DNA of 64,000 nt from a virus. Both the position numbers and the translations under genes were made by a program. Positions 17,718 to 32,863 of this stretch are shown here, piece by piece. Below the pieces are notes generated by a model. The model did not search any database. It was not told the origin of the DNA and saw only the letters and a list, made by a program, of their open reading frames with translations. The DNA is taken from the IMG/VR virus record IMGVR_UViG_3300012944_000001, positions 32,001 through 96,000 of that record, one strand, 5' to 3'. The stretch's first letter is position 1. Each line of letters starts with the position of its first letter.

Positions 17718-17789
17718 CGGGTGCGAGGAAGATGGCAATCCGCCTGGTTTGGGACCAGGATAAACTGAGTTCGATTCTCAGGCATCCGA
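17718..17789 (+). tRNA. tRNA-Pro(TGG)
   Basis: Cloverleaf; anticodon arm CCTGG-TTTGGGA-CCAGG; T loop TTCGATT. Confidence 0.85.
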
Positions 17790-17934
17790 CTAGTCATGTA
17801 TTTGCTAACGATAAATAATGGCAAATGTAAGAACCCATGGTAATGGGACGCATGGCAATAATTTGAGTTAGCACAAATGTATACACTCTCAAATATAAAT
17901 AAATATTAGTGCTCAACATTTAATAACTCATTAT

Positions 17935-18008
17935 GCCGTTGTAGCTCAGTCCGGAAGAGCATTCGGTTGAAGCCCGAAGGGTCGTAGGTTCGAATCCTAC
18001 CGGCGGCA
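17935..18008 (+). tRNA. tRNA-Phe(GAA)
   Basis: Canonical cloverleaf; TTCGG-TTGAAGC-CCGAA. Confidence 0.95.
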
Positions 18009-18056
18009 CTATGAGTCTCTGGATACTCATAGAGGAACACAACAAAATCCAGAAAT

Positions 18057-18128
18057 GGCGCAATAGCTCAGAGGAAGAGCATCCGCTTCATACGCGGCAG
18101 GTCGCTGGTTCGAATCCAGCTTGCGCTA
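18057..18128 (+). tRNA. tRNA with CAT anticodon (elongator Met, or lysidine Ile)
   Basis: Cloverleaf; CCGC-TTCATAC-GCGG. Confidence 0.85.
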
Positions 18129-18129
18129 C

Positions 18130-18206
18130 TGCACGGATAGAGAAACGATGTCTCACCAGCCTCATAAGCTGAAAAGTAGTGGGTTTGACTCCCGCCTGTG
18201 CCCCCA
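18130..18206 (+). tRNA. tRNA-Met(CAT), atypical, 1-72 mismatch (possibly initiator-like)
   Basis: CAGC-CTCATAA-GCTG; T loop TTTGACT; encoded CCA; lacks the GGG/CCC initiator anticodon stem. Confidence 0.65.
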
Positions 18207-18278
18207 CTTAACAATGTTAATTTTGACAATGCCCTATCTTGCGTGGTACTCTTCAGTCCTCAACGACTTGGAGGAATT

Positions 18279-18632
18279 ATGGGAGATAGGGCAAACGTTT
18301 ATATTCACGAAGGTGATTCGCCTGGTGTATATTTATATACTCACTGGGATGGTACAGAACTTCCACAGATTGTGCAAAGTTCTCTACTAACAGCTAGAGC
18401 AATATCTAGATCTACAGATATTGCCTATCTAACTAGAATTATCTTTGAAGATATGATAAAGGATGATTTAGGCGGAGAAACGGGATACGGTGTTTCTGCG
18501 GAAGTACAAGATGGGGATGATCGGATAGTAGATATTAATGTAGATTTCCGTAATGGAATCACAACTACTTTAATCGGTTATCCTTATACTTGGGCAGATA
18601 TTCCTGAAGATCCGTTTTCATTTGAAGATTAA
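18279..18632 (+). CDS. Hypothetical phage protein
   Basis: GGAGGA RBS; MGDRANV...VYLYTHWDG motif. Confidence 0.8.
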   Translation: MGDRANVYIHEGDSPGVYLYTHWDGTELPQIVQSSLLTARAISRSTDIAYLTRIIFEDMIKDDLGGETGYGVSAEVQDGDDRIVDINVDFRNGITTTLIGYPYTWADIPEDPFSFED

Positions 18633-18711
18633 GTAAACTATTGACGGGCCTGGGTCCTACACTGTAGGATGGATGAGAGCCAGTGAGTTGAGGGTGGTAC
18701 CTCTTCCTAAT

Positions 18712-18784
18712 GCGATATTAGTGTTTAACGGCAGCACGACAGTCTTCCAAACTGTAAGAGGGAGTTCGAATCTCCTATATCGCT
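18712..18784 (+). tRNA. tRNA-Gly(TCC)
   Basis: ACAGT-CTTCCAA-ACTGT; cloverleaf. Confidence 0.95.
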
Positions 18785-18842
18785 CGTAATGAGGTTCTGC
18801 GGTACGCCTCCTGGTGAAAAACCAGATAAACACCGCCTTTAT

Positions 18843-18913
18843 TCCCCGATGGTGTAACGGTAGCACTACTGCCTCTGGAGCAGTAAGACTTGGTTCGAAT
18901 CCAGGTTGGGGAG
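18843..18913 (+). tRNA. tRNA-Gln(CTG)
   Basis: ACTGC-CTCTGGA-GCAGT. Confidence 0.95.
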
Positions 18914-19161
18914 CGGGCGTAAGTAGGGCAAATAGTAAGCGCACGGATACTAGTCAAGTCGTGTGATAGGGTATGTCCGAAGATTCTAGAGCGTGTAAAT
19001 CGACTCAGAGCGCGCACACCACTTGGTATGTAAGAATGAGGAGCCCCCAGCAATGAATGGTCGATACTGGGAATAGGTGACGCTCATTGATAAACCTCCT
19101 GAAAAATAAAAGGGAGGCCAAAGTTCATATGTCCATTACCATATGACGCATATCAATACTT

Positions 19162-19232
19162 TCCCCCTTGGTGTAATGGCAGCACACGAGCCTTTGGATC
19201 TCGTAGTTTTGGTTCGATCCCAGACGGGGGAG
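19162..19232 (+). tRNA. tRNA-Gln(TTG)
   Basis: CGAGC-CTTTGGA-TCTCG. Confidence 0.9.
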
Positions 19233-19438
19233 CTTTAGTAAATACTAAAGGAGGTAAATATGTTTATGGATCCAAGCATTTATAAGGATATTGAAATACT
19301 TAAAGTTCAAGTTGAAGGTTTAAAACAAATTATAAATACTCTTGTAGGAGAAACTCCAGGTATTAATGATTTAGTTCATATTAACTATGATTTTACTCAA
19401 GAGTTAACTAAACTCAGAAAGCTGGGAGAGTTAATTTA

Positions 19439-19759
19439 ATGGGTTATTATTCTACATTTGAAGTACTAGAGACAGATATTATTGACGCTTATACAGTATT
19501 AAATGATTTGACTGAGTCAGACTGGGATAGTTCGCCCGGTTTTTCCTATTGGGATTCTAATAATAGTGTTCATTCATATGATTCAGCTAAGTGGTATGAC
19601 TGGTTGACAGATCTGGGACAGCTTGCTAGACTCTACCCAGACAGTTACTTAGTAATGGAACGTCGTGGAGAAGAATCCCCTGATATTTCCAGAGTCATAG
19701 TAAAGCACGGAAAAGCCGTAGAGATTGAGCCAGAGCTGGTGTGGCCTGAAGTTCTGTGA
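19439..19759 (+). CDS. Hypothetical phage protein
   Basis: MGYY...KWYDW..DL...YP......GEE motif. Confidence 0.75.
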   Translation: MGYYSTFEVLETDIIDAYTVLNDLTESDWDSSPGFSYWDSNNSVHSYDSAKWYDWLTDLGQLARLYPDSYLVMERRGEESPDISRVIVKHGKAVEIEPELVWPEVL

Positions 19760-19813
19760 TACAGTAGAGCAACCGTACGCCATGCGACGGTATATAAATA
19801 GGGCATGGCGCCT

Positions 19814-19885
19814 GGACTCATAGCTCAATGGTAGAGCACCAGCTTGTCACGCTGAAGGTTGCCGGTTCGAATCCGGTTGGGTCCG
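19814..19885 (+). tRNA. tRNA-Asp(GTC)
   Basis: CAGC-TTGTCAC-GCTG; cloverleaf. Confidence 0.95.
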
Positions 19886-19900
19886 CGTTAAGGAGAGATA

Positions 19901-20068
19901 ATGGCTAACCTAAGTGCTAAATATGCTGCAATGACTAATGAACAACTCAAAGCTGAAATAGTAAGACTTAAGCGCCTTAAGAAAGAGACGCTAGATATTA
20001 ATACAGTAAAGAGCTATAACGCAGAAATACTTCGTATAGTTAAGGTCTTAGAAGTAAGAGGTTTATAA
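19901..20068 (+). CDS. 55-aa helical protein (paralog of 20090..20251)
   Basis: AAGGAG RBS; read manually. Confidence 0.65.
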   Translation: MANLSAKYAAMTNEQLKAEIVRLKRLKKETLDINTVKSYNAEILRIVKVLEVRGL

Positions 20069-20089
20069 TCTTTAACGTGTGGAGCAAAC

Positions 20090-20251
20090 ATGAATTCAAG
20101 GTATGATTCTTGGAGCACTGATGATCTATTAGTAGAGATCATCAGATTAAAGCAGAGGATAAAAGAGTCTCTGACAGTATATGGCTCTACACTTGATAAA
20201 GATAAATTATTAGCAATTACTAAAGTATTAGAAAAAAGACGTAATAATTAA
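20090..20251 (+). CDS. 53-aa helical protein (paralog of 19901..20068)
   Basis: GGAG RBS; read manually. Confidence 0.65.
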   Translation: MNSRYDSWSTDDLLVEIIRLKQRIKESLTVYGSTLDKDKLLAITKVLEKRRNN

Positions 20252-20252
20252 T

Positions 20253-20323
20253 GCCGCTATCGTATATAGGTAGTATGCAAGCTTCTCACGCTTGTGGACA
20301 GAGTTCGAATCTCTGTAGCGGTA
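20253..20323 (+). tRNA. tRNA-Glu(CTC)
   Basis: CAAGC-TTCTCAC-GCTTG. Confidence 0.9.
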
Positions 20324-20521
20324 CTAGCAACACACCTTACAGGTCTTCAGAGTGTCGTGCTTTCTGAGATAAAAGAAAAGCGGCTCGTTAGCCAAAATAG
20401 AGATAGGCTGCCTGTTTGATGCTAACAAACCGAGGAAGTATGTGTGGGACTAGACTCGGATACTACTGATATAGGTATGCTTAGTGTGTACACACTAATT
20501 GGCAAAGGTATCAGTAGGTAT

Positions 20522-20593
20522 GCCCCCATCGTATATTGGTTAGTATCTGAGGCTTTCAATCTCAAGGAGAGGGTTCAATTCCCTCTGGGGGTA
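20522..20593 (+). tRNA. tRNA-Glu(TTC)
   Basis: TGAGG-CTTTCAA-TCTCA. Confidence 0.9.
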
Positions 20594-20849
20594 CGTAGCA
20601 CGTAATGGGATACTCTTCGGAGTAGGAGTGCGTTCCGGGAGATCACCCATTCGATCCTCTGGGTAGCATAGGAGCGGCGCGAACAAGGGAAGGGCCGCCA
20701 GGTAGGAGATACTGCATTCTGTGGCAGGAATGTAAGCAGGCATAAGGGATGAGCCTACCAGCCACTTAAACTAAATAACCTTTCTGAGATACAATTAGAT
20801 TGCTATAGCGATTACTGTTAAAGTAATTCTTTCTAGAAAGGTTCAAATA

Positions 20850-21164
20850 ATGGCTTTTACGTATTCACTTGTTACAGTGAACAACCTTGCTGTTGGTGAC
20901 CAGGTACGTGCCGCTGTTGCTGCTGATGGACATGCTTATGTGTTCCCAGTTCCAACAACTGGTGGCGCTTCTTTCCCAACAACAGTTCGTGCTATTTACC
21001 CAGCAGCAGTACCTCCTGGAACTGATAGTGCGGGTAACCCAGTTACCAATACTTCTGTTCTTTGGACAATTCAGTTAAACAACAGCTCTGTGTTCAATCT
21101 ACCAACAGACTTCACTTTGAATGTTGGAACAGACTTTGTTGTCAAGGCTACTGGTACAGCGTAA
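20850..21164 (+). CDS. Thr/Val-rich beta protein, possibly virion-associated
   Basis: AAAGG RBS; codon usage resembles the structural genes. Confidence 0.7.
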   Translation: MAFTYSLVTVNNLAVGDQVRAAVAADGHAYVFPVPTTGGASFPTTVRAIYPAAVPPGTDSAGNPVTNTSVLWTIQLNNSSVFNLPTDFTLNVGTDFVVKATGTA

Positions 21165-21217
21165 GCTTTACTCCTAGTGGGACGTATGGTATCCTCCTTG
21201 CTGTACGTCCCACCCAG

Positions 21218-21291
21218 GCCCCTATAGCTCATGTAGGCAGAGCAGCGCTCTTGTAAAGCGCAGGCGGAGGGTGCAAGTCCTTCTGGGGGCT
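21218..21291 (+). tRNA. tRNA-Thr(TGT)
   Basis: GCGCT-CTTGTAA-AGCGC; variant T loop TGCAAGT. Confidence 0.9.
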
Positions 21292-21309
21292 CTTTAAAGA
21301 AAGGTTATT

Positions 21310-21507
21310 ATGAAAATCTCTGATCCTATAATTCAGGAAGCATTAAATTCTGGAGCAGCTATTGGTATGGATAATTATCCAGAACATTATGCGGTAGTCT
21401 TGACAAACGGAGACTACTACATGTATCCTGACTATCCTAGCAACGACGTACGACACTTACTTGAAACAAAAAGTGTTGAGTTAGTGGACTGCTGGAAAGT
21501 TTTGTAG
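21310..21507 (+). CDS. Hypothetical protein
   Basis: AAAGG RBS. Confidence 0.65.
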   Translation: MKISDPIIQEALNSGAAIGMDNYPEHYAVVLTNGDYYMYPDYPSNDVRHLLETKSVELVDCWKVL

Positions 21508-21521
21508 TATCTTAGCTTTAT

Positions 21522-21595
21522 GCTCCAGTATCCCAACGGTAGAGGACATAGTCTCAAAAACTATGATAGTGTCGGTTCAAATCCGACCTGGAGTA
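21522..21595 (+). tRNA. tRNA-Leu(CAA), short variable loop
   Basis: ATAGT-CTCAAAA-ACTAT. Confidence 0.9.
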
Positions 21596-21730
21596 CAGCG
21601 CGGGTTCTTTCCAATAGTACTGAGGAAACCTCGTTAGTTACTGTAGTTTAAGTAAGCCCAGGCTAATTAAAAAACACTCAACCTAGGATAAGAGAGATAT
21701 GACCTGCTTGGTGGTCATCAGTAACGTTAT

Positions 21731-21803
21731 GGTTCTATAGCCCAATGGCAGAGGCATTCGACTTAAAATCGAAACAGTGACGGTTCGAGTCCGTCTAGAA
21801 CTA
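21731..21803 (+). tRNA. tRNA-Leu(TAA), reads UUA, short variable loop
   Basis: TTCGA-CTTAAAA-TCGAA. Confidence 0.9.
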
Positions 21804-21880
21804 CTTGACTAGAGACGTATGAGAAGGTAGACTCATAATCTATCAGAAGGCTACGACGAACTGTAGGCTCTCTAGTTTAT

Positions 21881-21956
21881 GCTCCTGTAGCCCAATTTTG
21901 GCAGAGGCGTCGGTTTTAGGTACCGAAGGTTGTCAGTTCGAGTCTGACCAGGAGTA
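21881..21956 (+). tRNA. tRNA-Leu(TAG), short variable loop
   Basis: TCGGT-TTTAGGT-ACCGA. Confidence 0.9.
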
Positions 21957-21990
21957 CGTTTTACAAAATCCATAAAAGGAGGCAACTGAT

Positions 21991-22206
21991 ATGGGGTTTG
22001 ACGTTACTCAAATTCTAGGATTTTTGGGACCTATTGGTCTTATGGGAGCATTTCTACTCTTTATGATTATGCGTAAGGGATGGGGATGGGCTCAGTTTGT
22101 TACAGCTTTTGTTTTTACTCTGTTGGTAGCTTCTGCACTTCCTGCCTTGCCACAAGCAATGCACAATGGTATGGTAGGCGTTATCAATGCATTTCAAAGT
22201 AAGTGA
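21991..22206 (+). CDS. Small membrane protein with two hydrophobic helices
   Basis: AAGGAGG RBS; hydrophobic sequence. Confidence 0.75.
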   Translation: MGFDVTQILGFLGPIGLMGAFLLFMIMRKGWGWAQFVTAFVFTLLVASALPALPQAMHNGMVGVINAFQSK

Positions 22207-22227
22207 TTAATAGCCCTTCGGGGTTTT

Positions 22228-22298
22228 AGGAATATACGTCAATGGAAGACTAGCGGCCTCCAAATCCGCTGATGTGGGTTCGAATCCTACTATTCCTG
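22228..22298 (+). tRNA. tRNA-Trp(CCA)
   Basis: GCGG-C-CTCCAAA-T-CCGC; cloverleaf. Confidence 0.9.
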
Positions 22299-22299
22299 C

Positions 22300-22328
22300 T
22301 TGACAGAGACTAACAACTCTGTTAGTAT
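22300..22328 (+). promoter_or_regulatory. Promoter upstream of tRNA-Asn, the Y-RNA-like array and Ro60
   Basis: TTGACA-17 nt-TAGTAT. Confidence 0.7.
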
Positions 22329-22364
22329 CAGTAAAATACCTTCCTCCTTGTAGGTAAGGTTTAT

Positions 22365-22436
22365 TCCTTGATAGCTCAATGGCAGAGCAGTCGACTGTTA
22401 ATCGACCGGTTGTTGGTTCGAATCCAGCTCAGGGAG
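22365..22436 (+). tRNA. tRNA-Asn(GTT)
   Basis: GTCGA-CTGTTAA-TCGAC; canonical. Confidence 0.95.
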
Positions 22437-22497
22437 CCTTAGCCCCTTTTCAAGCCTCTCGATGAAGCTCAAATGAGAAGGGCCAAAATTTAAATTT

Positions 22498-22619
22498 GTG
22501 ACGATGCGAAGAATAGAGTTACTTCGGTTAATTAGTGGTTCGATTCCATTCTCTGTAGTAAAACACAGATAGGCGAGTATAAAAACTCGTACATACTTTA
22601 TTCAAATTTTTCTAGTCAC
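22498..22619 (+). ncRNA. Y-RNA-like element 1 (T-arm-containing cargo)
   Basis: GTGAC/GTCAC terminal stem, GATGCG, GAATAGAGT/ACTTTATTC stem, TACTTC, TTTCTA; cargo contains GTGG-TTCGATT-CCAT. Confidence 0.7.
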
Positions 22620-22625
22620 TTAAAC

Positions 22626-22718
22626 TTGATAGAAGGTTGGGGTAGCCTGCTAGCGGCTGTAATCGGGCGAAAACGTCCCTTGTAATACTGATACGAACGT
22701 TCACATCCCTTCTATCAA
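22626..22718 (+). ncRNA. Unclassified structured RNA inside the array
   Basis: Perfect 11-bp closing stem TTGATAGAAGG/CCTTCTATCAA and two internal hairpins; lacks the array motifs. Confidence 0.5.
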
Positions 22719-22725
22719 CTAACTT

Positions 22726-22866
22726 GACAGCGATGCGCAGATAAGAGATACTTCACAGGGAACTCCGGGTCGTAGGTTCGAATCCTACTCTATCGACTCT
22801 TCGGTAGATAGCTCAGTGGTAGAGCAGGGGTATATAAAGAACTTTTATCGACTTTTTCTAGCTGTC
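22726..22866 (+). ncRNA. YrlA-like Y RNA, element 2 (circularly permuted tRNA-like domain)
   Basis: GACAGC/GCTGTC stem plus array motifs; the T arm GTAGG-TTCGAAT-CCTAC precedes a closed acceptor-like hairpin and then a D arm TA-GCTC-AGTGGTA-GAGC; adjacent to Ro60. Confidence 0.85.
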
Positions 22867-22874
22867 TTTATTTT

Positions 22875-22967
22875 TATGACCAATGCGTAGGCACGGGGTT
22901 ACTTCAAATTAATTGATAATTGACGGGCATAGCCCAGTAAACCTCAGCCGATTATTTCTAGGTCATA
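22875..22967 (+). ncRNA. Y-RNA-like element 3
   Basis: TATGACC/GGTCATA stem, AATGCG, GGC..GGGGT/ACCTC.GCC stem, TACTTC, TTTCTA. Confidence 0.7.
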
Positions 22968-22979
22968 TAACTTAATATT

Positions 22980-23054
22980 TCTACCCGATGCGACGCCGCC
23001 GGTTACTTCAACCCTTCGCAGAAAAAATCCGGCCGCACATTTTTCTAGGGTGGA
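22980..23054 (+). ncRNA. Y-RNA-like element 4 (minimal cargo)
   Basis: TCTACCC/GGGTGGA stem, GATGCG, GCCGG/CCGGC stem, TACTTC, TTTCTA. Confidence 0.7.
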
Positions 23055-23061
23055 TCATTTT

Positions 23062-23169
23062 AGTTCCGATGCGTGGATTACTGGTTACTTCAATGCTAAT
23101 GAAAAGGTACGGTTCGAATCCGTTTAAGGCATGGCGCCCACACACCAGAAATCATTATTTCTAGGAACT
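23062..23169 (+). ncRNA. Y-RNA-like element 5 (anticodon-arm plus T-arm cargo)
   Basis: AGTTCC/GGAACT stem, GATGCG, GATTACTGGT/ACCAGAAATC stem, TACTTC, TTTCTA; cargo TTCA-ATGCTAA-TGAA then ACGG-TTCGAAT-CCGT. Confidence 0.7.
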
Positions 23170-23179
23170 TATTAATCTT

Positions 23180-23220
23180 CCCCTTGGTTAGGCATAGCCT
23201 TACTTGAGGGGTTTATTTTT
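23180..23220 (+). terminator. Terminator-like hairpin between the RNA array and Ro60
   Basis: CCCCT...AGGC/GCCT...AGGGG followed by TTTATTTTT. Confidence 0.55.
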
Positions 23221-23254
23221 ATCTACTTAACGTACCACAACATAGGAGGATACA

Positions 23255-24874
23255 ATGGGTAAGTTCAATAAGGTTAACAGCACAGGCGTTCAGTCACCTA
23301 TAAAGACTGTAGGAAAGATTATTAATCATGATGCTCGTGTAGCTTTTGCGCGGGATACCCAGTCTGAACTGTATTTGTTTGCAGTATCCAACTTTGTTGG
23401 TCAGGATACGTTCTATGAGAATGCTAAGGCCAGCGATGATCGCTTTGTTATCCTTTCTCAAAAGGCCGCTGTAGCAGATCGTGCCTGGTTTGGCTACTTC
23501 GTGAGCTGGCTTCGTAACGAGGCATTCATGCGTAGTGCTGCTGTTGTGGCGGCTGTTGAGGGTGCCAAGGCATTACACGCGGCTGAGTCGTTTGTAGGGG
23601 CTGAGAATGCCTCCTGGCCCCGTCATATAGTTAGTGCTGCTCAAGCACGAGCTGATGAGCCCGGTGAAGTATTAGGATACTATGAAGCTAAGTACGGTAA
23701 GAATTTCCCGGCTTGGTTAAAGAAGGGTGTTGCGGACGGCGCAAAGCGTCTCTATAATGAGTATTCTCTTCTTAAGTACGATACAGTTTCTCACGGTTAT
23801 CGTTTTTCTGATGTAATTCAGCTTACTCACCCTAAGCCTGATAATGAAATACAGGAACAACTATTTAAGTACGCGATGAATAGTCGATACAATAACACAG
23901 AGTTTGTTGGCCGAGAGAATCATCTGCCCATGATAGAGACTCGTAAGGCTATTATGGAAATGCCTGTTCGTAGTCGAAAGGCACTTATAGGTAAGGGCGG
24001 AACAGAGGTACAGAGCCTATTCAAGAATGCAGGAATGACGTGGGAAGCTCTGTCTGGCTGGCTTCAGGGTCCTATGGATGCTGCGGCTTGGGAAGCCGTT
24101 ATTCCTTCTATGGGATACATGGCGCTGCTTCGTAATCTTCGTAATTTCCAGAATGCTGGTATCCGTGCTAAGGTGCTGAAGGAAGTTCTTGGTAAGCTTG
24201 CTGATTTCGAGCAGGTTGCAAAGAGTAAGCAGTTCCCTTTCCGATTCCTTGCTGCTTACCAGGCAAATAAGGATAATCTACAGATCTCTGCCGCGCTAGA
24301 GAGTGCTTTGCAGGCTTCTTTGGCCAATGTCCCTTCCCTTAATGGGAATAGCTTGATTCTAGTTGATCGCTCTGGTAGCATGTTCCAGACTGGTGGAGGT
24401 GTCCAAGGACTCGATCGTGCAGACACGGCTGCTATTTTCGGTACCGCTCTGGCTATGCAAGCAGAAAAGGCTGATCTTGTGCAGTACGGTTCAGCATGGT
24501 ATGGTCAGGATAGTTCTTCCAAGGTAGTATCTTTCCGTAAGGGGAATTCTATTCTGCCGATGCTCAGTAAGTTTGAGAATCTTGGCGGAACAGACACCAC
24601 TGGAGCTATTAAGCGACACTTGACACCGAAGCATGACCGAGTTATTCTCATCACTGATGAGCAGTACAACGGCTATGGTGTCGATCCAGGAAGCATTGTT
24701 CCTGCTAAGATTCCGATGTACACTTGGAATCTTGGAGGATATCAAGCGGCTCACAGTGAGTCTGGTTCAAAGAAGCGTCACACCTTTGGCGGATTGACTG
24801 ATAAGGCATTTGTACAGATTCCTATGATTGAGGCTGGGCAGAATGCTGTATGGCCTTGGGAGGCTAAGAAGTGA
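23255..24874 (+). CDS. rsr: Ro60/TROVE-domain RNA-binding protein with C-terminal vWA domain
   Basis: TROVE motifs (TFYE, RADEPGE, KYD, TWEALS, MGYMALLRNLRN, SKQFPFRF); vWA MIDAS LVDRSGSM, GGTD and ITDEQ. Confidence 0.95.
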   Translation: MGKFNKVNSTGVQSPIKTVGKIINHDARVAFARDTQSELYLFAVSNFVGQDTFYENAKASDDRFVILSQKAAVADRAWFGYFVSWLRNEAFMRSAAVVAAVEGAKALHAAESFVGAENASWPRHIVSAAQARADEPGEVLGYYEAKYGKNFPAWLKKGVADGAKRLYNEYSLLKYDTVSHGYRFSDVIQLTHPKPDNEIQEQLFKYAMNSRYNNTEFVGRENHLPMIETRKAIMEMPVRSRKALIGKGGTEVQSLFKNAGMTWEALSGWLQGPMDAAAWEAVIPSMGYMALLRNLRNFQNAGIRAKVLKEVLGKLADFEQVAKSKQFPFRFLAAYQANKDNLQISAALESALQASLANVPSLNGNSLILVDRSGSMFQTGGGVQGLDRADTAAIFGTALAMQAEKADLVQYGSAWYGQDSSSKVVSFRKGNSILPMLSKFENLGGTDTTGAIKRHLTPKHDRVILITDEQYNGYGVDPGSIVPAKIPMYTWNLGGYQAAHSESGSKKRHTFGGLTDKAFVQIPMIEAGQNAVWPWEAKK

Positions 24875-24963
24875 GTAGGTGGTTCTGTATTTTTTGTCGA
24901 GAATGGTGGAAGCCGAGAGAAGCAAAGTGTCCAACATGTAGCCGACCAAAACCGTTGTCTTGA
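24871..24963 (+). CDS. 30-aa zinc finger (WxCxxC-x10-CxxC) coupled to Ro60
   Basis: GTG overlaps the Ro60 TGA; GGGAGG RBS; MSRWFCIFCREWWKPREAKCPTCSRPKPLS. Confidence 0.6.
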   Translation: MSRWFCIFCREWWKPREAKCPTCSRPKPLS

Positions 24964-24989
24964 CTTTGACTCATACGATCTGATACAGT
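24960..24989 (+). promoter_or_regulatory. Promoter upstream of the tRNA-Ala/Lys block
   Basis: TTGACT-18 nt-TACAGT. Confidence 0.6.
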
Positions 24990-25036
24990 ATTAAGAGCAG
25001 TTGGCGGACTGCCCTCTAGTAAAAAACCGCCACGAT

Positions 25037-25109
25037 GGGCCTATAGCATAATTGGGAATGCACCTCTTTTGCAAGGAGACGAGTGTCGGTTCGAATCCGA
25101 CTAGGTCCA
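25037..25109 (+). tRNA. tRNA-Ala(TGC)
   Basis: G3:U70 pair; loop TTTGCAA. Confidence 0.9.
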
Positions 25110-25236
25110 CGCGGAAGTCCGTATTAGCTACCTAAACCGGTTGGGTCGGACCCAGAACGCTAATAACATGGGATAACAGAATATTAAAGAAAGTTAATTC
25201 GGCCGAATTATACCTACTAGTATTTTGCCCATGCAT

Positions 25237-25309
25237 GCTCCGTTAGCTCAGTTGGTAGAGCATTCGCCTCTTAAGCGACAGGTCGTCCGTTCAAGTCGGA
25301 CACGGAGCA
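25237..25309 (+). tRNA. tRNA-Lys(CTT)
   Basis: TCGC-CTCTTAA-GCGA. Confidence 0.95.
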
Positions 25310-25351
25310 CTGAGTTTTAGTAGCGCGGTTTCTCTAAAAAACCGGGACAAT

Positions 25352-25424
25352 GATTCCTTAGCTCAGTTGGTAGAGCAGCGGACTTTTAATCCGAAGCGCG
25401 TCGGTTCGAGCCCGACAGGAATCA
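25352..25424 (+). tRNA. tRNA-Lys(TTT)
   Basis: CGGA-CTTTTAA-TCCG. Confidence 0.95.
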
Positions 25425-25577
25425 CATGAATATATTGAGAGATCTTTATACAGTTAAAGGTTTATGGTATTACGTGTGTCCACGTCCAAAATGTAAATTC
25501 ACTACTGTAAGTAACTTAACATCTAGAGCTGATGCTATCGGAGCAAGAGCTAATCATGAGAGGGAACACGATAATTA

Positions 25578-26144
25578 ATGATCACTCCTCAGCCTGGAGA
25601 CTTTGGATTAGTCGCCATTAAAGGCGGTGTAGGTAAACTGATCCGTATTGGTCAATGGTTGAATGGTGATGGTTTCAATGACTATGAACATGCTTTCATC
25701 TATATTGGTGAGGGTAAGATAGTAGAAGCTGAACCAGGCGGAGCACTTCTATCAGATATAAGTGGGTATGATGGTAGATTCATTCTATGGTCTACAGGTC
25801 TTATTCCTTTGACTGATATTCAAAGAAGTTCTATAATAGACATGGCTCTAAAACAAATTGGCACACCTTATAGTTTCTTAGATTATTTTGCTATAGCGCT
25901 TTATAGAGTTGGTATTCGTCATCCAAAAGTATCTGATAGAGTTATCAGTTCAAAACATTTGATATGCTCTCAGTTAGTTGCCCAAGACTATGCCGATTCG
26001 GGAGCACCCGTAACAAAGTATCCACCTTACCTGGTGACCCCTGGACGTTTGGCAGACTTTTTGGTAAGCTTCAGACACACAAAACGTCTAGGCAAGATGG
26101 TTCAAAAATCTGGATCAAATAGCATTAATATTCAAATAGCCTAG
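25578..26144 (+). CDS. Permuted papain-like NlpC/P60 (YiiX/YaeF-type) enzyme
   Basis: PGDF...HAFIYIG..IVEA...GTPYS...CSQLV, with His before Cys. Confidence 0.85.
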   Translation: MITPQPGDFGLVAIKGGVGKLIRIGQWLNGDGFNDYEHAFIYIGEGKIVEAEPGGALLSDISGYDGRFILWSTGLIPLTDIQRSSIIDMALKQIGTPYSFLDYFAIALYRVGIRHPKVSDRVISSKHLICSQLVAQDYADSGAPVTKYPPYLVTPGRLADFLVSFRHTKRLGKMVQKSGSNSINIQIA

Positions 26145-26149
26145 ATTAT

Positions 26150-26222
26150 GCATCCATAGCTCAACGGATAGAGCACTTGATTACGGATCAAGAGGTTGGG
26201 GGTTCGAATCCCTCTGGATGCA
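26150..26222 (+). tRNA. tRNA-Arg(ACG)
   Basis: CTTGA-TTACGGA-TCAAG. Confidence 0.95.
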
Positions 26223-26368
26223 CAGGGACATAGGGTTCATCTATGTGAGGGTTGTCCCTCGGAAAACACGGAGATCATAGAGTGCGTTCCTGCACGTCCA
26301 GACCAAGCAGGTCAGATTGACGGTACCTGAATATTACCGTTATTAAGCATTTAACTGTGGGAGGTACT

Positions 26369-26845
26369 TTGTCTCGTACATTAAAAGATCGTCCTTACTG
26401 GGTATTAAAGAATGATCCAAAAATGTCTCGTTACGCTACTCACGCGCATATTGTTATGCAGCGGGAGGAGATCGGTGAAGAAGAGTATGACAGATATCCT
26501 TGGCGACCTGACGTAGATCCAGTAACACATATAAGAAAACTTTACAGAAGATGGTACGAGAATATACCTTGTACTCTTGATATACCAGAACAGTCACGTC
26601 ATGCTAGACAGTATGCTCGTTGGCAAGGTAGACATACCAACGAAGAAATGCTTGAAGGCAAATATTGTGAATATTGGCTGAGATACTATCCTAATATGAA
26701 GAGCGATAAAGCTTTCAAGCAGTTGACAAACCAGGCGATACGATCTAGAATAAATCAACAGCTTCGGGCAGCGTGTCATGAAGATCCTGAAGACGTTGAC
26801 ATAAGCACCGACACGAAGTACAATAGTCGTGGCTGGTGGGACTGA
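26369..26845 (+). CDS. Basic hypothetical protein
   Basis: GGGAGG RBS before TTG 26369 (SRTLKDRPYWV). Confidence 0.75.
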   Translation: MSRTLKDRPYWVLKNDPKMSRYATHAHIVMQREEIGEEEYDRYPWRPDVDPVTHIRKLYRRWYENIPCTLDIPEQSRHARQYARWQGRHTNEEMLEGKYCEYWLRYYPNMKSDKAFKQLTNQAIRSRINQQLRAACHEDPEDVDISTDTKYNSRGWWD

Positions 26846-26866
26846 TAAACACAATAGGAGGATGCA

Positions 26867-27025
26867 ATGGGCAAGCCTAAGGCAAATTCAAATGTTTCGA
26901 TCCCTAAGAATCGTACGGGAGTTGTAACTGAAGTCGGAGAGACTAGGTCACACGTTCTAATTGAAGATCCAGAGGACCCTAAGAAGAGTATTACAGTTAT
27001 CGTTCCTAATAATAAGATTAAGTAG
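26867..27025 (+). CDS. 52-aa SH3/KOW-like protein
   Basis: AGGAGG RBS; promoter TTGACA-17-TACAAT upstream. Confidence 0.65.
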   Translation: MGKPKANSNVSIPKNRTGVVTEVGETRSHVLIEDPEDPKKSITVIVPNNKIK

Positions 27026-27057
27026 TGGGATAGAACAAAGTGTGCTATACTTAGTGT

Positions 27058-27375
27058 ATGCCTTATAAAAATAGAGAAGATCAATACGCATCGCAAGCAG
27101 CACATCGGCAACGCAATTTTGAAGCTATGTGGTCGATTCTCCGCAACTCGTCATGTACGGATTGTGGAGAATATGATCCCATAGTGCTAGAGTTCGATCA
27201 CCTTCCAGGTTACGAAAAGCGATTTGAAATTGCTAGAGCTGTAGGAAGTTCTACTAGAAGTTGGAAGGCTATAAAAGCAGAAATAGACAAGTGTGAAATC
27301 GTATGTGCTAACTGTCATAGACGTAGAACAAATCAGCGAGGATTGCACAAGCGTCATCTTGCTCCCGTAGACTAA
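27058..27375 (+). CDS. HNH-family nuclease
   Basis: CTDCG...LEFDH...EIDKCEIVCANCHRRRT. Confidence 0.85.
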   Translation: MPYKNREDQYASQAAHRQRNFEAMWSILRNSSCTDCGEYDPIVLEFDHLPGYEKRFEIARAVGSSTRSWKAIKAEIDKCEIVCANCHRRRTNQRGLHKRHLAPVD

Positions 27376-27433
27376 TGGACAAGTCACCAGCCTTCTAAGC
27401 TGTTAAATGGGGGTTCGAATCCCTCCGGGAGTA
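27361..27433 (+). tRNA. tRNA-Arg(TCT)
   Basis: CAGC-CTTCTAA-GCTG; overlaps the last codons of the HNH ORF. Confidence 0.9.
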
Positions 27434-27466
27434 CGTAAGTATAGTTAAACACAATGGGAGGCAATT

Positions 27467-27664
27467 GTGGGATATAAGTTTAGAAAAGGCCAAGAAGTAG
27501 ATACGGTCGATGGTAAGGACGGCAGAATTACTTCTCGATCGGATGATTTCGGTAGGCAACCACGATATGTAGTAAATGGCAAGCTATATTTTGAGGAAGA
27601 ACTTCAGGCACAAACTTCGGACGAAAAGCCAGCAAAGAAGAGTCGCTGGGGTAGAAATAAGTAA
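27467..27664 (+). CDS. Small SH3-like protein
   Basis: GGGAGG RBS; KFRKGQEV...GRI...Y...FEEEL. Confidence 0.7.
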   Translation: MGYKFRKGQEVDTVDGKDGRITSRSDDFGRQPRYVVNGKLYFEEELQAQTSDEKPAKKSRWGRNK

Positions 27665-27686
27665 GTTAAAAGCCCTTAGGGGCCAT

Positions 27687-27757
27687 GCCCGCTTAGGTTA
27701 ATGGAAGACCAGTAGTTTTACACACTACATGCGGGGGTTCGATTCCCTCAGCGGGTA
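27687..27757 (+). tRNA. tRNA-Val(TAC)
   Basis: GTAGT-TTTACAC-ACTAC. Confidence 0.9.
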
Positions 27758-27780
27758 CTCGTAACAAGCAGGAGGCAATT

Positions 27781-27984
27781 ATGGCAAAAGTAGGCGACAT
27801 CGTAAAGATGCAAAAAGGAACATACAAGGATCGTCTGGGAGTAGTTATTGCTATCCGTAATAATATTCTGTGTGATGTAAAGCTAGCTCGTCCAGGTGAG
27901 CGGCGTTCCAGAATTAGTCTGGATATGCCTGGAATAGTAGTTACCAATTGTCTTGAAATTGAAGATTTCATCATATCTAAATAG
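27781..27984 (+). CDS. KOW-motif small protein
   Basis: KVGDIVKMQKGTYKDRLGVV; AGGAGG RBS. Confidence 0.7.
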   Translation: MAKVGDIVKMQKGTYKDRLGVVIAIRNNILCDVKLARPGERRSRISLDMPGIVVTNCLEIEDFIISK

Positions 27985-27990
27985 TTTTAT

Positions 27991-28069
27991 GGGTCTGTAA
28001 GGTTTCGTCTGAACTTAAAGCCGCACGTCGGAAACTTTCAGCACCCCGGTTCGATTCCGGGCAGATCCA
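27991..28069 (+). ncRNA. Miniature tmRNA-like RNA (tRNA-like domain only)
   Basis: Acceptor GGGTCTG/CAGATCC-A with G3:U70; stemless D loop TAAGGTTTCG; CTGAA/TTCAG helix; T arm CCCGG-TTCGATT-CCGGG; no anticodon arm and no tag ORF. Confidence 0.7.
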
Positions 28070-28073
28070 CTTT

Positions 28074-28150
28074 GCGCATTGATCTAATCCGCATGGTGTG
28101 GAGTTGGTCTGCAAAACCAATGATTTCCGGTTCGATTCCGGTAATGCGCT
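28074..28150 (+). tRNA. tRNA-Cys(GCA), atypical D arm
   Basis: TTGGT-CTGCAAA-ACCAA; U73. Confidence 0.8.
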
Positions 28151-28163
28151 CTTGGAGGATAGC

Positions 28164-28316
28164 ATGAAACAAGGAACAATAACTAAGATATATGGAAAAT
28201 ACAAAGCGGAATATGTAAAACCTGATCGTAAGTATGGAAGACATTGGGTAACGATTTTAGAAGGCCCTGATATAGGAAGAACTATAACTGTTCCCGCAGA
28301 TCGTCTTGATAAGTAA
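28164..28316 (+). CDS. 50-aa SH3-like protein
   Basis: GGAGGA RBS before ATG 28164. Confidence 0.65.
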   Translation: MKQGTITKIYGKYKAEYVKPDRKYGRHWVTILEGPDIGRTITVPADRLDK

Positions 28317-28320
28317 ATAT

Positions 28321-28406
28321 GGAGAAGTGGCTGAGTTGGTCTAAGGCATCTGATTGCTAATCAGAAGGGTGTAAAAGCTCCGCAGGTTCGAATCCTGTCT
28401 TCTCCG
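28321..28406 (+). tRNA. tRNA-Ser(GCT)
   Basis: TCTGA-TTGCTAA-TCAGA; long variable arm. Confidence 0.95.
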
Positions 28407-28535
28407 CTCTGGTATCAGTCCTATATCAGGAACCTGAAAGACGACGTGTAGTCCGGATTAGTAAGGTAGCTAAATATACATAAAAGAAGTGCTCGACTAC
28501 ACATACGCTTTTATGTATAATTTAGTATGGACATT

Positions 28536-28623
28536 GGAAGTTCCAACCGATAGATGGCGCCGGTCGCAGTCTTGAAAACTGTTGGGTGTAATAGCCGTAG
28601 GGGTTCGACCCCCCTAGCTTCCG
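28536..28623 (+). tRNA. tRNA-Ser(TGA), atypical D region
   Basis: GCAGT-CTTGAAA-ACTGT; long variable arm; G73. Confidence 0.85.
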
Positions 28624-28675
28624 CTGGCTGATAGTATTGACTATTGAATCACTATGTTATAGTGTGGCCTAACTT

Positions 28676-28751
28676 GCTCCAGTGGCCAAGTCTGGTGAAG
28701 GCGCCCGTCTTATAAGCGGGAGATGCGTCGGTTCAAATCCGACCTGGAGTA
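28676..28751 (+). tRNA. tRNA-Ile(TAT)
   Basis: CCCGT-CTTATAA-GCGGG. Confidence 0.85.
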
Positions 28752-28808
28752 CAAAGACTGCTATCCGTTAGATTCGGATATAATCCTAGTTGGACACTAG
28801 CAGTCCTT

Positions 28809-28882
28809 TCAGGTATAGTGAAATCTGGTCATCACAACACTCTGATAAAGTGTAATTCTGGGTTCAAATCCCGGTACCTGGA
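28809..28882 (+). tRNA. tRNA-Ile(GAT)
   Basis: ACACT-CTGATAA-AGTGT. Confidence 0.9.
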
Positions 28883-28978
28883 CGTTAAGGAGATAACTAT
28901 GATTAAATGTTCAAGATGCAAAGCAAAGAATATAAAAGGTAGTCGTTGGTGTCATAGATGTGGCAAGGAGTTAAGTTA

Positions 28979-29293
28979 ATGTATTCGGTAACTGATGCTA
29001 CATTTCATGAAGTATTACACAACAATAAGTCTGTCATTGTAGATTTTTGGGCACCCTGGTGCGGTCCTTGTCGTCAAGTAGCACCTGTGCTAGACTCTTT
29101 ATCACAAGAGCATACAGATATTACTTTTGTCAAAATGGACATTGATACAAATCATATGACATCTAATAAGTATGAAATATTATCTGTTCCAACAATTGCA
29201 CTATTTATTAATGGTGATTTAGTAAAAACAGTAGTTGGAGCAAGACCGAAAGTAGCTCTTGAAAGAGAATTACTTTCTGCCCTATATCAATAG
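28979..29293 (+). CDS. trxA: Thioredoxin
   Basis: VDFWAPWCGPC active site; SVPT cis-Pro motif; AAGGAG RBS before ATG 28979. Confidence 0.95.
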   Translation: MYSVTDATFHEVLHNNKSVIVDFWAPWCGPCRQVAPVLDSLSQEHTDITFVKMDIDTNHMTSNKYEILSVPTIALFINGDLVKTVVGARPKVALERELLSALYQ

Positions 29294-29299
29294 GGTTAT

Positions 29300-29372
29300 G
29301 GTGTTTGAGGCCAAACGGATAGGCGCCTGGTTGTGGTCCAGGTTAAAGCGGGTTCGACTCCCGTCATTCACC
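29300..29372 (+). tRNA. tRNA-His(GTG)
   Basis: CCTGG-TTGTGGT-CCAGG; G-1:C73; two T-T mismatches in the acceptor stem. Confidence 0.8.
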
Positions 29373-29478
29373 CTTAAGGTCCAGAGTAACCATAAAAATC
29401 CTCCTCTCTGGTATGCAATGGATGCCTCTCACACCTCTATATAACGAGGAAGGTGGAGGATAAGGCTCCTGCGCCAAT

Positions 29479-29559
29479 GGGTGAGTTGAGCAATTGGTTG
29501 GCTCAGCGGACTGTAAATCCGTCTCTTCGGACATGGGGGTTCGAATCCCTCCTTACCCA
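29479..29559 (+). tRNA. tRNA-Tyr(GTA)
   Basis: GCGGA-CTGTAAA-TCCGT; variable arm present. Confidence 0.95.
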
Positions 29560-29730
29560 CCTTAAGGAAATAAATGGCTAGTATAGTTGATGAATTAATT
29601 AATGGTATTGCTCATTTTGAATGTTTGGGCTGTAAGACTACTGCTACTAAAAATGTAGGACAAAGTAGAACAGCTTATGATAAAGCCTATAATAAATTCT
29701 TAAGTAAGCATTTGTCTTGTAAGTAGTACC

Positions 29731-29801: not shown

Positions 29802-30038
29802 GTGCGTCCATGGACTAAAGATGAAAGAGAAGCATATAAAGATTCGACCATGCATTATCACAAGTACGATCTCTATGGATATGTAGATGATCTTATTGAG
29901 ACTTGGCACACTTCTATGGGCCTAAATGTTTCTCTTTATAGTTTCCTAGGACTTTACGAAGGAGAAGTGTCAGACTGGGCCGGTAAGAATATCATTCCGG
30001 ATCGTATTGTAGTTATGTGGGAGGAAGGAGAATACTAA
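29802..30038 (+). CDS. Small hypothetical protein
   Basis: GAGGAGG RBS; stop overlaps the RNA ligase start. Confidence 0.7.
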   Translation: MRPWTKDEREAYKDSTMHYHKYDLYGYVDDLIETWHTSMGLNVSLYSFLGLYEGEVSDWAGKNIIPDRIVVMWEEGEY

Positions 30039-31114
30039 TGCTTATACATGATTTACTTAACATCCGGGATTTAGATACTATGCTTACGGAAGGTTATGTA
30101 AGATTTGGTATTCATCCCATTTTTCCAAATGTTCGTATATTTAACTACACTGAAAAGGCTCAATTCGCCAACGAGTGGAATGACATAACTCGACAATGCC
30201 GTGGTCTTATAGTTGATTGGGATACCAAAGAAGTACTTGCGCGCCCTTTTGACAAGTTCATGAATTATGGTCAAGATCAGGCAGACGTAATTCTTGCTGG
30301 CTATTCAGTTAAGGTATATGACAAGTTAGACGGATCTCTGGGAATTCTATTTCGTCGTCCTGATGGTTTTTGGGAAATAGCTACAAGAGGTTCCTTTCAA
30401 TCAGACCAGGCGTCGCATGCCACAATACTTCTTCGTCAAAAGTACAGTTCGTTTTTACTGGGATTAAATAGTGATCTTACATATATGTTTGAAATCATCT
30501 ATCCACAAAACCGTATCGTATTGGATTACGGAGACAAAGATTCCCTGGTATTACTTGGTGCCAGAAGTATTGACGAAGGCTCTACGTACGGGCCTGAGAG
30601 CCTCCCAGATTGGCACTGGGACCGAACTACTACCTTCCCTTACAAGACTCTCAGTGAGGCGCTGAAGGCCCCTCCTAGACCTAATGCAGAGGGTTACGTG
30701 GTCTACTTCCCGGAGTTGGACCACAGAGTCAAGATCAAGCAGGATGATTACATAGCGATGCACAAGATCGTTACGGGCTTGACAGAGCGTCGTATCTGGG
30801 AGAACATGAAGGAAGGTAAAACTCTAGAAGATCTTGTAAATATTATTCCAGACGAATGGCATGATTGGCTCCAAGAAACGTATACTAAGATCAAGAAAAA
30901 TTATTGGGCTGAATGGAGTACTATTCTTGAGGAGTTTAATACACATACCATGTGGTTGGACGTGGCTAATTATCAAAAATGGTCCCGAAAAGATTTTGCT
31001 TTGCGAGTTAAAGACTCAAGATATAAAGGCTTTATGTTTTTAATGTTGGATAATAACAACGTAACTGACAAGGTATGGCAATTGGTTCGACCACCCGCTG
31101 AGTCATTACTGTAA
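30038..31114 (+). CDS. T4 Rnl1-type RNA ligase
   Basis: CRGLI...ARPFDKF; motif I KLDGSL; ATRGSF; FEII.P.NRIV; EGYVV; VKIK. Confidence 0.9.
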   Translation: MLIHDLLNIRDLDTMLTEGYVRFGIHPIFPNVRIFNYTEKAQFANEWNDITRQCRGLIVDWDTKEVLARPFDKFMNYGQDQADVILAGYSVKVYDKLDGSLGILFRRPDGFWEIATRGSFQSDQASHATILLRQKYSSFLLGLNSDLTYMFEIIYPQNRIVLDYGDKDSLVLLGARSIDEGSTYGPESLPDWHWDRTTTFPYKTLSEALKAPPRPNAEGYVVYFPELDHRVKIKQDDYIAMHKIVTGLTERRIWENMKEGKTLEDLVNIIPDEWHDWLQETYTKIKKNYWAEWSTILEEFNTHTMWLDVANYQKWSRKDFALRVKDSRYKGFMFLMLDNNNVTDKVWQLVRPPAESLL

Positions 31115-31708: not shown

Positions 31709-31771
31709 ACACGAATCTCTGTATAGTGTAGGATGTACTGCACTATACAGATTTTTTATAAGGAGGCAAAT

Positions 31772-32863
31772 ATGTGGGGAAACTTAGAATATATTTCAAA
31801 CATCGATCAGCTATATATGTTGGCTTCTGAAAATGATAATGTCGCCGAGGTGCTGGCAGATAAATCTAAGGGCCGCGCATCAGTATGTAAAATTCTTGCG
31901 GGCAGCGGATATGCTGTATCTGAGAAATTAATTCGTACATTTCGCAATAAACAAGAAGCAATTACAGATAAAAATATTAGAGAGGCGATGGACTATATCC
32001 AGGAGTCATATAACTATAGTCCTACATATAGCACCACAGAAGGCCAGGTTCATACAGTACCCGGATATTGCAATGTAACTAATATTTCAAAAAATACTAA
32101 AGCAAAGACTATTGTTATCATGCCAGATGTGCAAGCGCCATTGCATGATGTTGCTTTGGTAGATAAGTTCATTGATTTCCTAGGAGACTATCAGCCAGAT
32201 GAGCTTGCGCAAGTTGGAGATTTCACTGATTCTACTGAAATCAGTCGGTGGGTACGAGGTAAGAAAACCGAATATGCAGGAGACCTACAAGACGGATTCA
32301 ATTCTGCCAGAGGCATCTTGGAAAGTATCAGAGAAGTATTCGATGGACGATTCCGTATAGTCCGGTCGAATCATGATGACCGACTTGAGCTTTATATTGA
32401 ATCGTGCGCTCCTGGATTGGCGTCCCTTGATGTACTTTCCATTGAGAACCTTTCTGGATTCGATGAATTCGATGTCGAGTTTGTACGAGACGAAGTTGTA
32501 GAACTTGCGCCTGGTTGGGTCATGGCACACGGAGATGAAGGTTCTTTGAGTCCATCAGCGGGTCGTACAGCCTTTGGTTTGGCCAAGAACAAGTTTGGTA
32601 CCAGTACTGTCTGTGGACATACTCACAGAGCTGGTATGACATCAGAGAGTACAGGTTACAACGGAAAGATTCGTAATACCCTGACAGGTCTTGAGGTAGG
32701 TCACTTTATGGATCTTACTAAGGCCGATTATCTAAAGAAAAAGGGAGTAGCTGCTAATTGGCAGCAAGCCTTTGGAATTCTTGAGATTCACGGTTCTCGT
32801 GTGTATCCCAGACTTGTCACTGTTCAGGATGGTTGTTTCTCGGTAGATGGTCAACTTTACTAG
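31772..32863 (+). CDS. Calcineurin-like metallophosphoesterase with N-terminal extension
   Basis: PDVQ, GDFTD, SNHD, HGD, GHTH motifs; AAGGAGG RBS before ATG 31772. Confidence 0.9.
   Translation: MWGNLEYISNIDQLYMLASENDNVAEVLADKSKGRASVCKILAGSGYAVSEKLIRTFRNKQEAITDKNIREAMDYIQESYNYSPTYSTTEGQVHTVPGYCNVTNISKNTKAKTIVIMPDVQAPLHDVALVDKFIDFLGDYQPDELAQVGDFTDSTEISRWVRGKKTEYAGDLQDGFNSARGILESIREVFDGRFRIVRSNHDDRLELYIESCAPGLASLDVLSIENLSGFDEFDVEFVRDEVVELAPGWVMAHGDEGSLSPSAGRTAFGLAKNKFGTSTVCGHTHRAGMTSESTGYNGKIRNTLTGLEVGHFMDLTKADYLKKKGVAANWQQAFGILEIHGSRVYPRLVTVQDGCFSVDGQLY

Follow-up and report, generated by a model that had tools for sequence, protein, structure and literature searches.

A tmRNA tRNA-like domain without an mRNA domain, encoded in the tRNA island of a BRock-related actinophage

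Within a large phage tRNA island lies a stretch of about 80 nt that has the acceptor stem and T arm of an alanine tRNA and neither a D stem nor an anticodon arm, which raises the question of what kind of RNA it specifies and what such an RNA may do in the host. The window analyzed here is a stretch of 64,000 nt from a viral genome of 111,914 bp that has direct terminal repeats and is rated complete (CheckV 100%). An initial annotation, made from the letters alone, had described at 27991-28069 an alanine-type acceptor, a stemless D loop resembling that of tmRNA, a helix closed by a short segment in place of the anticodon arm, and a 3-nt linker to a canonical T arm. All of these features were found at that position, both in the sequence and in the layout of the MFE fold. 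The parts of the element, in window coordinates, are as follows:

27991-28070, plus strand: tmRNA gene consisting of the tRNA-like domain (TLD) only, here called mini-tmRNA; G1 to A73 (28069), plus a conserved C74 (28070)
27991-27997, plus strand: 5' strand of the acceptor stem, GGGTCTG, pairing with 28062-28068 (from the sequence)
27998-28008, plus strand: D loop of tmRNA type with no D stem, TAA GGTTTCGT (from family alignments including A1, A3 and A6)
28009-28013, plus strand: 5' strand of helix P2a, CTGAA; 5 bp in the window, up to 8 bp in the family
28014-28036, plus strand: closing segment in which an A-rich internal loop (CTTAAAG / AAACT) flanks the hairpin CCG-CACGT-CGG
28037-28044, plus strand: 3' strand of helix P2a, TTCAG (28037-28041), and linker CAC (28042-28044)
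28045-28061, plus strand: T arm CCCGG / TTCGATT / CCGGG (28045-28049 / loop / 28057-28061)
28062-28069, plus strand: 3' strand of the acceptor stem, CAGATCC, and discriminator A73 at 28069 (from the sequence and the family alignment)

The gene is 79-80 nt long in total and does not encode CCA, C74 alone following A73. Its 7-bp acceptor stem carries the alanine identity set, with G3 (27993) opposite U70 (28066) and A73 at 28069. The D loop of 11 nt includes GGTTTCG, which resembles the GGxUUCGAC of tmRNAs, and D loop, linker and T arm are together of tmRNA type: the window has GGTTTCGTC ... CAC and the T loop TTCGATT, and the homologue consensus for D loop and linker is GGTTTCGAC ... GGAC. The family consensus of the D loop is GGTTTCGA, in which the window copy has U18 (28008) for the consensus A; in the linker it has CAC versus the family GGAC, and C51 (28042) pairs with U18. 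Compared with the consensus, the window copy is therefore distinguished by U18.C51 for A.G, a P2a of 5 rather than 8 bp, and a 5-nt hairpin loop. The hairpin (28021-28031) has 3 bp, CCG 28021-28023 with CGG 28029-28031, closing the loop CACGT. Helix P2a encloses 23 nt with no stop codon in any frame. No mRNA-like domain (resume codon, tag ORF and stop) was detected in these 23 nt, and ARAGORN called no tmRNA or tag; pseudoknots PK1-PK4 and helices 2b-d were likewise absent from the 79-80 nt, the tmRNA model matching both ends with its interior deleted. The MFE fold has a z-score of -1.21, which is unremarkable by itself; as the folding energy of the single sequence is not significant, the case for the structure was built on covariation.

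The tmRNA model RF00023 aligned end to end with window positions 27991-28072 (model positions 1-374, 43.8 bits, E 1.7e-17). This score is below the Rfam gathering threshold of 47 bits. The ordinary tRNAs of the same genome reached no more than 13.6 bits with this model, and the gap between the two values indicates a specific match to both tmRNA termini with the interior missing. A covariance model, R1, was built from 15 homologues with the window element excluded; it gave 80.7 bits (E 5e-18) for the window element, which was the sole match in the window at E<0.001. ARAGORN, which predicted 28 tRNAs in the window, and Rfam at the gathering threshold made no call at 27991-28069. Identity as a tRNA-Ala was rejected, as the element has no Ala anticodon arm or D stem and neither program calls a tRNA there.

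The family was collected in two ways. A motif scan of viral contigs identified 75 distinct elements of 77-82 nt, among them the 15 used for R1, and the first homologue set (76 aligned sequences) was chosen on the hairpin sequence. MAFFT misplaced the 5' ends where the D loop differs in length, so model-based alignments were used instead, which favour the model's own structure. Among the 76 sequences, 97.2% of pair cells held standard pairs versus 68.7% after shuffling, and the covariation score was 0.67 versus 0.13 in shuffled alignments and at most 0.10 in slid controls. Double changes were present in all 8 family pairs of helix 2a and in most acceptor and T-stem pairs; acceptor pairs 4-7 covary, and G1-C72, G2-C71, G3:U70 and A73 are invariant (76/76). 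Because this set had been selected on the hairpin, a second search was run with D loop, T loop and 3' end as the only constant parts of its pattern. It yielded 89 distinct elements, 68 of which are 79-81 nt long; the CCG-CAYG-CGG hairpin occurs in 29 of the 89, and the others have different short hairpins at this place. The 71 distinct sequences of this hairpin-independent set were 96.5% paired with a covariation score of 0.67; the third pair of the hairpin covaries in them while CC..GG is kept, and G3:U70 is present in 70 (146 of 147 aligned sequences overall). The hairpin is conserved in Mycobacterium phage DS6A and in the 76 homologues of the first set. Covariation was also seen between nt18 and nt51 (window 28008 and 28042), with A.G in 47 sequences, C.U in 9, A.C in 8 and U.C, the window combination, in 7; their mutual information of 0.60 was reached in none of 5000 permutations (alignment A6, columns 29 and 72), which points to a non-Watson-Crick pair, conserved at the base of the TLD.

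Conservation in related phages, which the initial annotation had named as a check, was thus traced through about 140 distinct elements, including those of the BRock group and DS6A. As these share the same architecture with compensatory changes, neither chance nor a recent deletion nor an assembly artefact can account for the element; the mini form is old and widely distributed, and purifying selection acts on it. Model scores, homology to DS6A and covariation bear out the view that the element is a tmRNA TLD without the mRNA domain. The element is structured and conserved, is homologous to both tmRNA ends and belongs to the same family as the DS6A element, and its identity as a TLD-only (tag-less, CDS-less) tmRNA gene, made of TLD, helix 2a and a conserved short stub with a hairpin, is confirmed.

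The RNA ligase gene downstream of the element (30017-31114, T4 Rnl1-type) was used as bait and retrieved uncultured phages of ~112 kb. Those having the region carry an element of ~80 nt at the corresponding place, with tRNA-Val(tac) ahead of it and tRNA-Ser(gct) behind it; the RF00023 scores are 37-55 bits, three of which pass the cut-off (47-55 bits). The range was 37-76 bits in a wider sample, where 17 of 24 mini forms exceeded the cut-off. The ligase is 49.6% identical to that of Streptomyces phage BRock, the nearest cultured phage, which places the window phage as a distant BRock-like actinophage; it is a soil-type, low-GC actinophage. BRock itself has an unannotated mini element at NC_048650 97142-97225 in the same gene order, and GiJojo, LuckySocke, Alone3 and pSt2308, also Streptomyces phages of the BRock group, carry one as well; the element is present in independent cultured isolates. 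BLAST searches of cultured phages with two other subfamily representatives gave no match, and a third representative retrieved the same Streptomyces phages only. Megablast of the region for near-identity returned nothing but an unrelated tRNA-Ser match. A motif pattern for the element had no match in 401 sampled Actinomycetota genomes, a result that does not imply absence from prophages. The gene is missed by ARAGORN, by Rfam at its gathering threshold and by the GenBank records of BRock, LuckySocke, Alone3 and pSt2308, which leaves an annotation gap.

The kind of RNA is already known from DS6A; the breadth of the family is undescribed in the literature searched. DS6A is listed as "Mycobacterium phage DS6A (TLD only)" by Hudson, Lau and Williams 2014 (PMC4131195), and in the 2025 tmRNA database paper (PMC11915505) it is the sole phage named, beside CDS-less mitochondrial and two plastid forms; the supplements of the latter paper contain no phage entries. 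The DS6A TLD-only ssrA (tmRNA Website tmID 11587 / Phage__Mycobacterium.9) has the same ~80 nt and G3:U70/A73 acceptor as the window element, a stemless GG..TCGAC D loop, helix 2a, the CAC linker and the T arm, and the same GAAAA-CCG-CACG-CGG hairpin stub, with A73-C74 alone encoded. Both are recognized by the same model, R1, with 61.2 bits for DS6A (28478-28558) and 80.7 bits for the window. The window element has what defines the DS6A-type class, namely a TLD of ~65-90 nt with helix 2a and a short stub, and homology to DS6A. However, DS6A is a 60-kb temperate Mycobacterium siphovirus without a tRNA island, whereas the window element is embedded in a tRNA array of 28 genes in a BRock-related phage of 112 kb, has a shorter P2a and has U.C at nt18/nt51. 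The window thus adds to the family a member within the large tRNA island of a low-GC actinophage.

Other relatives are less close. Canonical tmRNAs (RF00023, including those of Streptomyces phage Faust and of L022) have the TLD, the alanine identity set, a GGAC-type linker and helix 2a in common with the mini-tmRNA, which in contrast lacks the resume codon, tag ORF, stop and pseudoknots and is ~300 nt shorter. Tag-less tmRNAs of jakobid and oomycete mitochondria and of Mallomonadaceae plastids, in the account of Jacob et al. 2004 given by PMC11915505, are similarly reduced to about the TLD and persist under selection together with SmpB. These organellar forms, likened here by description, are vertically inherited and serve their own translation, whereas the phage RNA has to rely on SmpB from the host, which it probably subverts. 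A TLD with only a few base pairs of helix 2a is also familiar from the laboratory. Engineered TLD mini-constructs were reportedly made for SmpB co-crystals by Gutmann et al. 2003 and Bessho et al. 2007, and a TLD with a few helix 2a base pairs closed by a loop is said to suffice for SmpB binding and alanylation in vitro; the mini-tmRNA differs from these constructs in being natural.

Full-length tmRNAs were detected in the tRNA islands of more distant relatives, in Faust (298 nt) and L022 (400 nt). Like the mini form, they lie in actinophage tRNA islands near an RNA ligase gene; both encode ..ALAA tags, that of Faust being ANSKNASAYALAA. Among 25 records, 24 contained the mini form without a full tmRNA and one contained a full tmRNA without the mini form; Faust and L022 each have a full tmRNA and no mini form. 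The two forms are mutually exclusive in this sample and the mini form replaces the full tmRNA, which we count in favour of the explanation preferred below.

Trans-translation is the main ribosome-rescue and protein-tagging pathway of bacteria and a drug target. No SmpB gene was found in the complete phage genome, and among the proteins encoded next to the 140 elements no family recurs at more than 16; with no partner tmRNA, no SmpB and no constant neighbour protein, the RNA must use host factors. We favour the explanation that it probably competes with tmRNA: charged by the host and bound by SmpB, it would keep SsrA tags from being added, either by sequestration or by transfer of the peptide without a tag. 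A transcript of the phage tRNA island would include the mini-tmRNA; RNase P would cut before G1, the 3' end would be trimmed and the host CCA-adding enzyme would complete the RNA. Host AlaRS would charge it with alanine via G3:U70/A73, and host SmpB and EF-Tu would bind the elbow formed by the tmRNA-type D loop and T loop. The charged RNA would then compete with host tmRNA for SmpB and stalled ribosomes, so that nascent (phage) chains would escape the SsrA degradation tag. This could happen by sequestration alone, or the peptide could be accepted without a tag template and then be released via ArfB-type factors or peptidyl-tRNA hydrolase (Pth). As a conjecture, a low-GC phage in a high-GC host likely stalls ribosomes often, and avoiding the tag would then be useful to it.

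The initial annotation had offered an SmpB decoy, a tag-free rescue RNA and one half of a split tmRNA as possible roles. A decoy or inhibitor is consistent with the DS6A literature. According to the passage of PMC4131195 that cites Mao et al. 2009, a DS6A-like molecule, chargeable or not, strongly inhibits tmRNA, maybe by titrating SmpB; inhibition of endogenous tmRNA by a DS6A-type molecule was observed in E. coli, as both PMC4131195 and PMC11915505 relate in citing that study. This evidence belongs to the DS6A-type molecule only and to E. coli. Since the inhibition is described in that passage of PMC4131195 as independent of charging, a pure decoy leaves the invariant alanine set unexplained. 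That invariance argues that charging is selected, which the published decoy model does not predict, and tag-free rescue agrees with the literature as well as with this invariant set.

The alternative that survives best makes the RNA a helper of rescue. A cheap, tag-less RNA would be produced whose alanylated form, escorted by SmpB and EF-Tu, would move into stalled ribosomes and accept the chain; ArfB-type release, or drop-off followed by Pth, would free the ribosome, giving more rescue during infection and no marking for degradation. We regard this as possible though rather unlikely. The invariant alanine identity set fits it, as do the position in a translation-support island, where distant relatives have full-length tmRNAs that encode a degron and no sampled record has both forms, and the persistence of CDS-less tmRNAs with SmpB in mitochondria and some plastids, where they are read as an aid for incomplete mRNAs (PMC11915505). 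However, the sole experiment cited in the passages of the literature referred to above reports inhibition of tmRNA, and the proposal overlaps with competition for SmpB, from which it differs just in the fate after binding. Put in terms of the ribosome, the mini-tmRNA would be more than a passive sponge for SmpB: charged with Ala and delivered by SmpB and EF-Tu, it would take nascent chains from stalled ribosomes without a tag template, and the phage would in this way turn the degradative rescue of its host into a non-degradative one; release would depend on ArfB or Pth, or alanine might possibly be added repeatedly, and the A-rich loop, the CC..GG hairpin and the ~80-nt length might provide a second contact on the ribosome or a host factor. 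We put this forward tentatively as a whole. If the preferred reading, competition with host tmRNA, is true, a natural and widespread phage RNA of 80 nt is a compact inhibitor or hijacker of SmpB-tmRNA, and cultured carriers such as BRock and GiJojo allow direct functional testing.

The surroundings of the element bear on a further alternative. The relevant features are as follows:

17718-29561, plus strand: tRNA island of 28 genes (ARAGORN)
25037-25110, plus strand: separate, ordinary tRNA-Ala(UGC) with G3:U70, A73 and loop TTTTGCA
28074-28151, plus strand: tRNA-Cys(GCA) with enlarged D loop (ARAGORN; Rfam tRNA 40.9 bits; same order in BRock)

The mini-tmRNA occupies a slot between tRNA-Val(tac) and tRNA-Cys / tRNA-Ser(gct), and the gene order of the island is syntenic in L010, L011, L012, L014, L021 and BRock. 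The tRNA-Cys(GCA), the D loop of which is ~10 nt larger, is probably co-transcribed with the mini-tmRNA, and RNase P cleavage at its 5' end would set the 3' trailer of the mini-tmRNA. An ORF stops 6 nt upstream of the element and the tRNA-Cys begins 4 nt 3' of it, a spacing that would suit processing punctuation, that is, a tRNA-like "t-element" directing RNase P/Z cleavage of a transcript of tRNAs and small ORFs. This role is very improbable: merely to direct cleavage, an RNA would require neither G3:U70/A73 nor the tmRNA D loop, the GGAC linker or a length-constrained P2a and hairpin, all of which are conserved, and tRNA arrays are lacking in many of the carriers, small phages such as DS6A.

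The tRNA-Ala at 25037, already pointed out in the initial annotation as a proper tRNA-Ala, is indeed one: its loop aligns column for column with that of tRNA-Ala(tgc) in five relatives. ARAGORN calls the same gene Cys(gca), a mismatch in the anticodon stem permitting two registers. The counterpart of the tRNA-Cys in the BRock GenBank record (L159 4189-4269) is on the strand opposite to all its neighbours. The island is flanked by the RNA ligase (30017-31114), a metallophosphatase-like protein and a thioredoxin (the latter two at 31733-32863 and 28958-29293), which together with a Ro60 protein make up an RNA-repair or translation-support neighbourhood.

This Ro60/Rsr orthologue (TROVE and VWA domains, 539 aa; 23255-24874, plus strand) is encoded 3 kb upstream of the mini-tmRNA, and Y RNAs mimic tRNA (PMC4201824), so that the mini-tmRNA might be a partner of the phage Ro60 in a Y-RNA-like module. 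In a related proposal it would be one half of a two-piece tmRNA. Either is highly doubtful. Both acceptor strands are contained in one piece, and the second piece for which a scan of the full genome had been suggested was not found: RF00023, RF04321, Rfam at the gathering threshold and ARAGORN detected no other tmRNA, standard or permuted, in the complete genome, in which SmpB is also absent. The best match of the permuted tmRNA model RF04321 reached 18.6 bits versus a cut-off of 47 and covered only the T arm and 3' strand of the mini-tmRNA itself. Beyond the window, the genome contained neither ARAGORN genes nor Rfam matches at the gathering threshold. The split-tmRNA role envisaged in the initial annotation was accordingly rejected. 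Ro60, moreover, has a separate YrlA-like Y RNA alongside (22741-22851, plus strand), ~400 nt upstream of its gene, with an RF02553 score of 37.7 bits (cut-off 69; E 5e-6) over the full model length. Within the BRock-like clade TROVE is conserved, but it was found in just 7 of the 25 carrier records searched, and DS6A has none.

Identity of the element itself as a YrlA/Y RNA (RF02553) was rejected as well, the YrlA-like match lying elsewhere and TROVE being absent from 18 of the 25 carrier records. In the same part of the island, a sub-threshold match to the abiF RNA motif (RF03085; 32.6 bits versus a cut-off of 37) is located at 22446-22483 (plus strand), directly 3' of a tRNA-Asn.

As for origin, Streptomyces-type host tmRNAs have the same D loop sequence, GGTTTCGAC, and the same linker, GGAC, and their genes end in ..TCCAC without CCA. 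When the mini hairpin was compared with the 3' strand of the host-type helix 2b, 10 of 12 positions were alike, in a free-gap pairwise alignment that was otherwise noisy; this likeness makes it plausible that the mini-tmRNA arose from a full tmRNA by internal deletion. That the element is instead a functionless, decaying remnant of a full phage tmRNA after a recent deletion, or an assembly artefact, is scarcely credible: full tmRNAs do occur in the same type of island in distant relatives and the hairpin does resemble helix 2b, but the same ~80-nt architecture recurs in ~140 distinct sequences, each helix shows compensatory changes, the length is tight (79-81 nt in 68/89) and independent cultured isolates carry the element. 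The initial annotation had allowed for full tmRNAs at this place in related phages together with a recent deletion or artefact here; the first part is true of the distant relatives Faust and L022, whereas the second does not agree with the covariation and the breadth of the family.

The 3' ends of host genes are of a similar kind. Host-type tmRNA genes in L177, L178, L180 and L181, which are large actinobacterial genomes, end in ..TCCAC followed by sequence other than CCA, and such ends imply that CCA is added after transcription, as the phage mini-tmRNAs must have it. The Microbacterium tmRNA gene (L179) does encode CCA.

Two further observations were made in relatives. ARAGORN predicted a tRNA with a 2-nt "anticodon" (ta) in one relative and one whose anticodon has 4 nt (gcaa) in a phage contig of 150 kb; these tRNAs, at L008 3797-3870 and L020 17990-18065, are possibly of an odd-loop or frameshift type. 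In L211, a viral contig of 43 kb, R1 had two matches ~1.3 kb apart, at 5-82 (45.4 bits) and 1317-1393 (54.3 bits), which indicates two mini-tmRNA genes on one contig.
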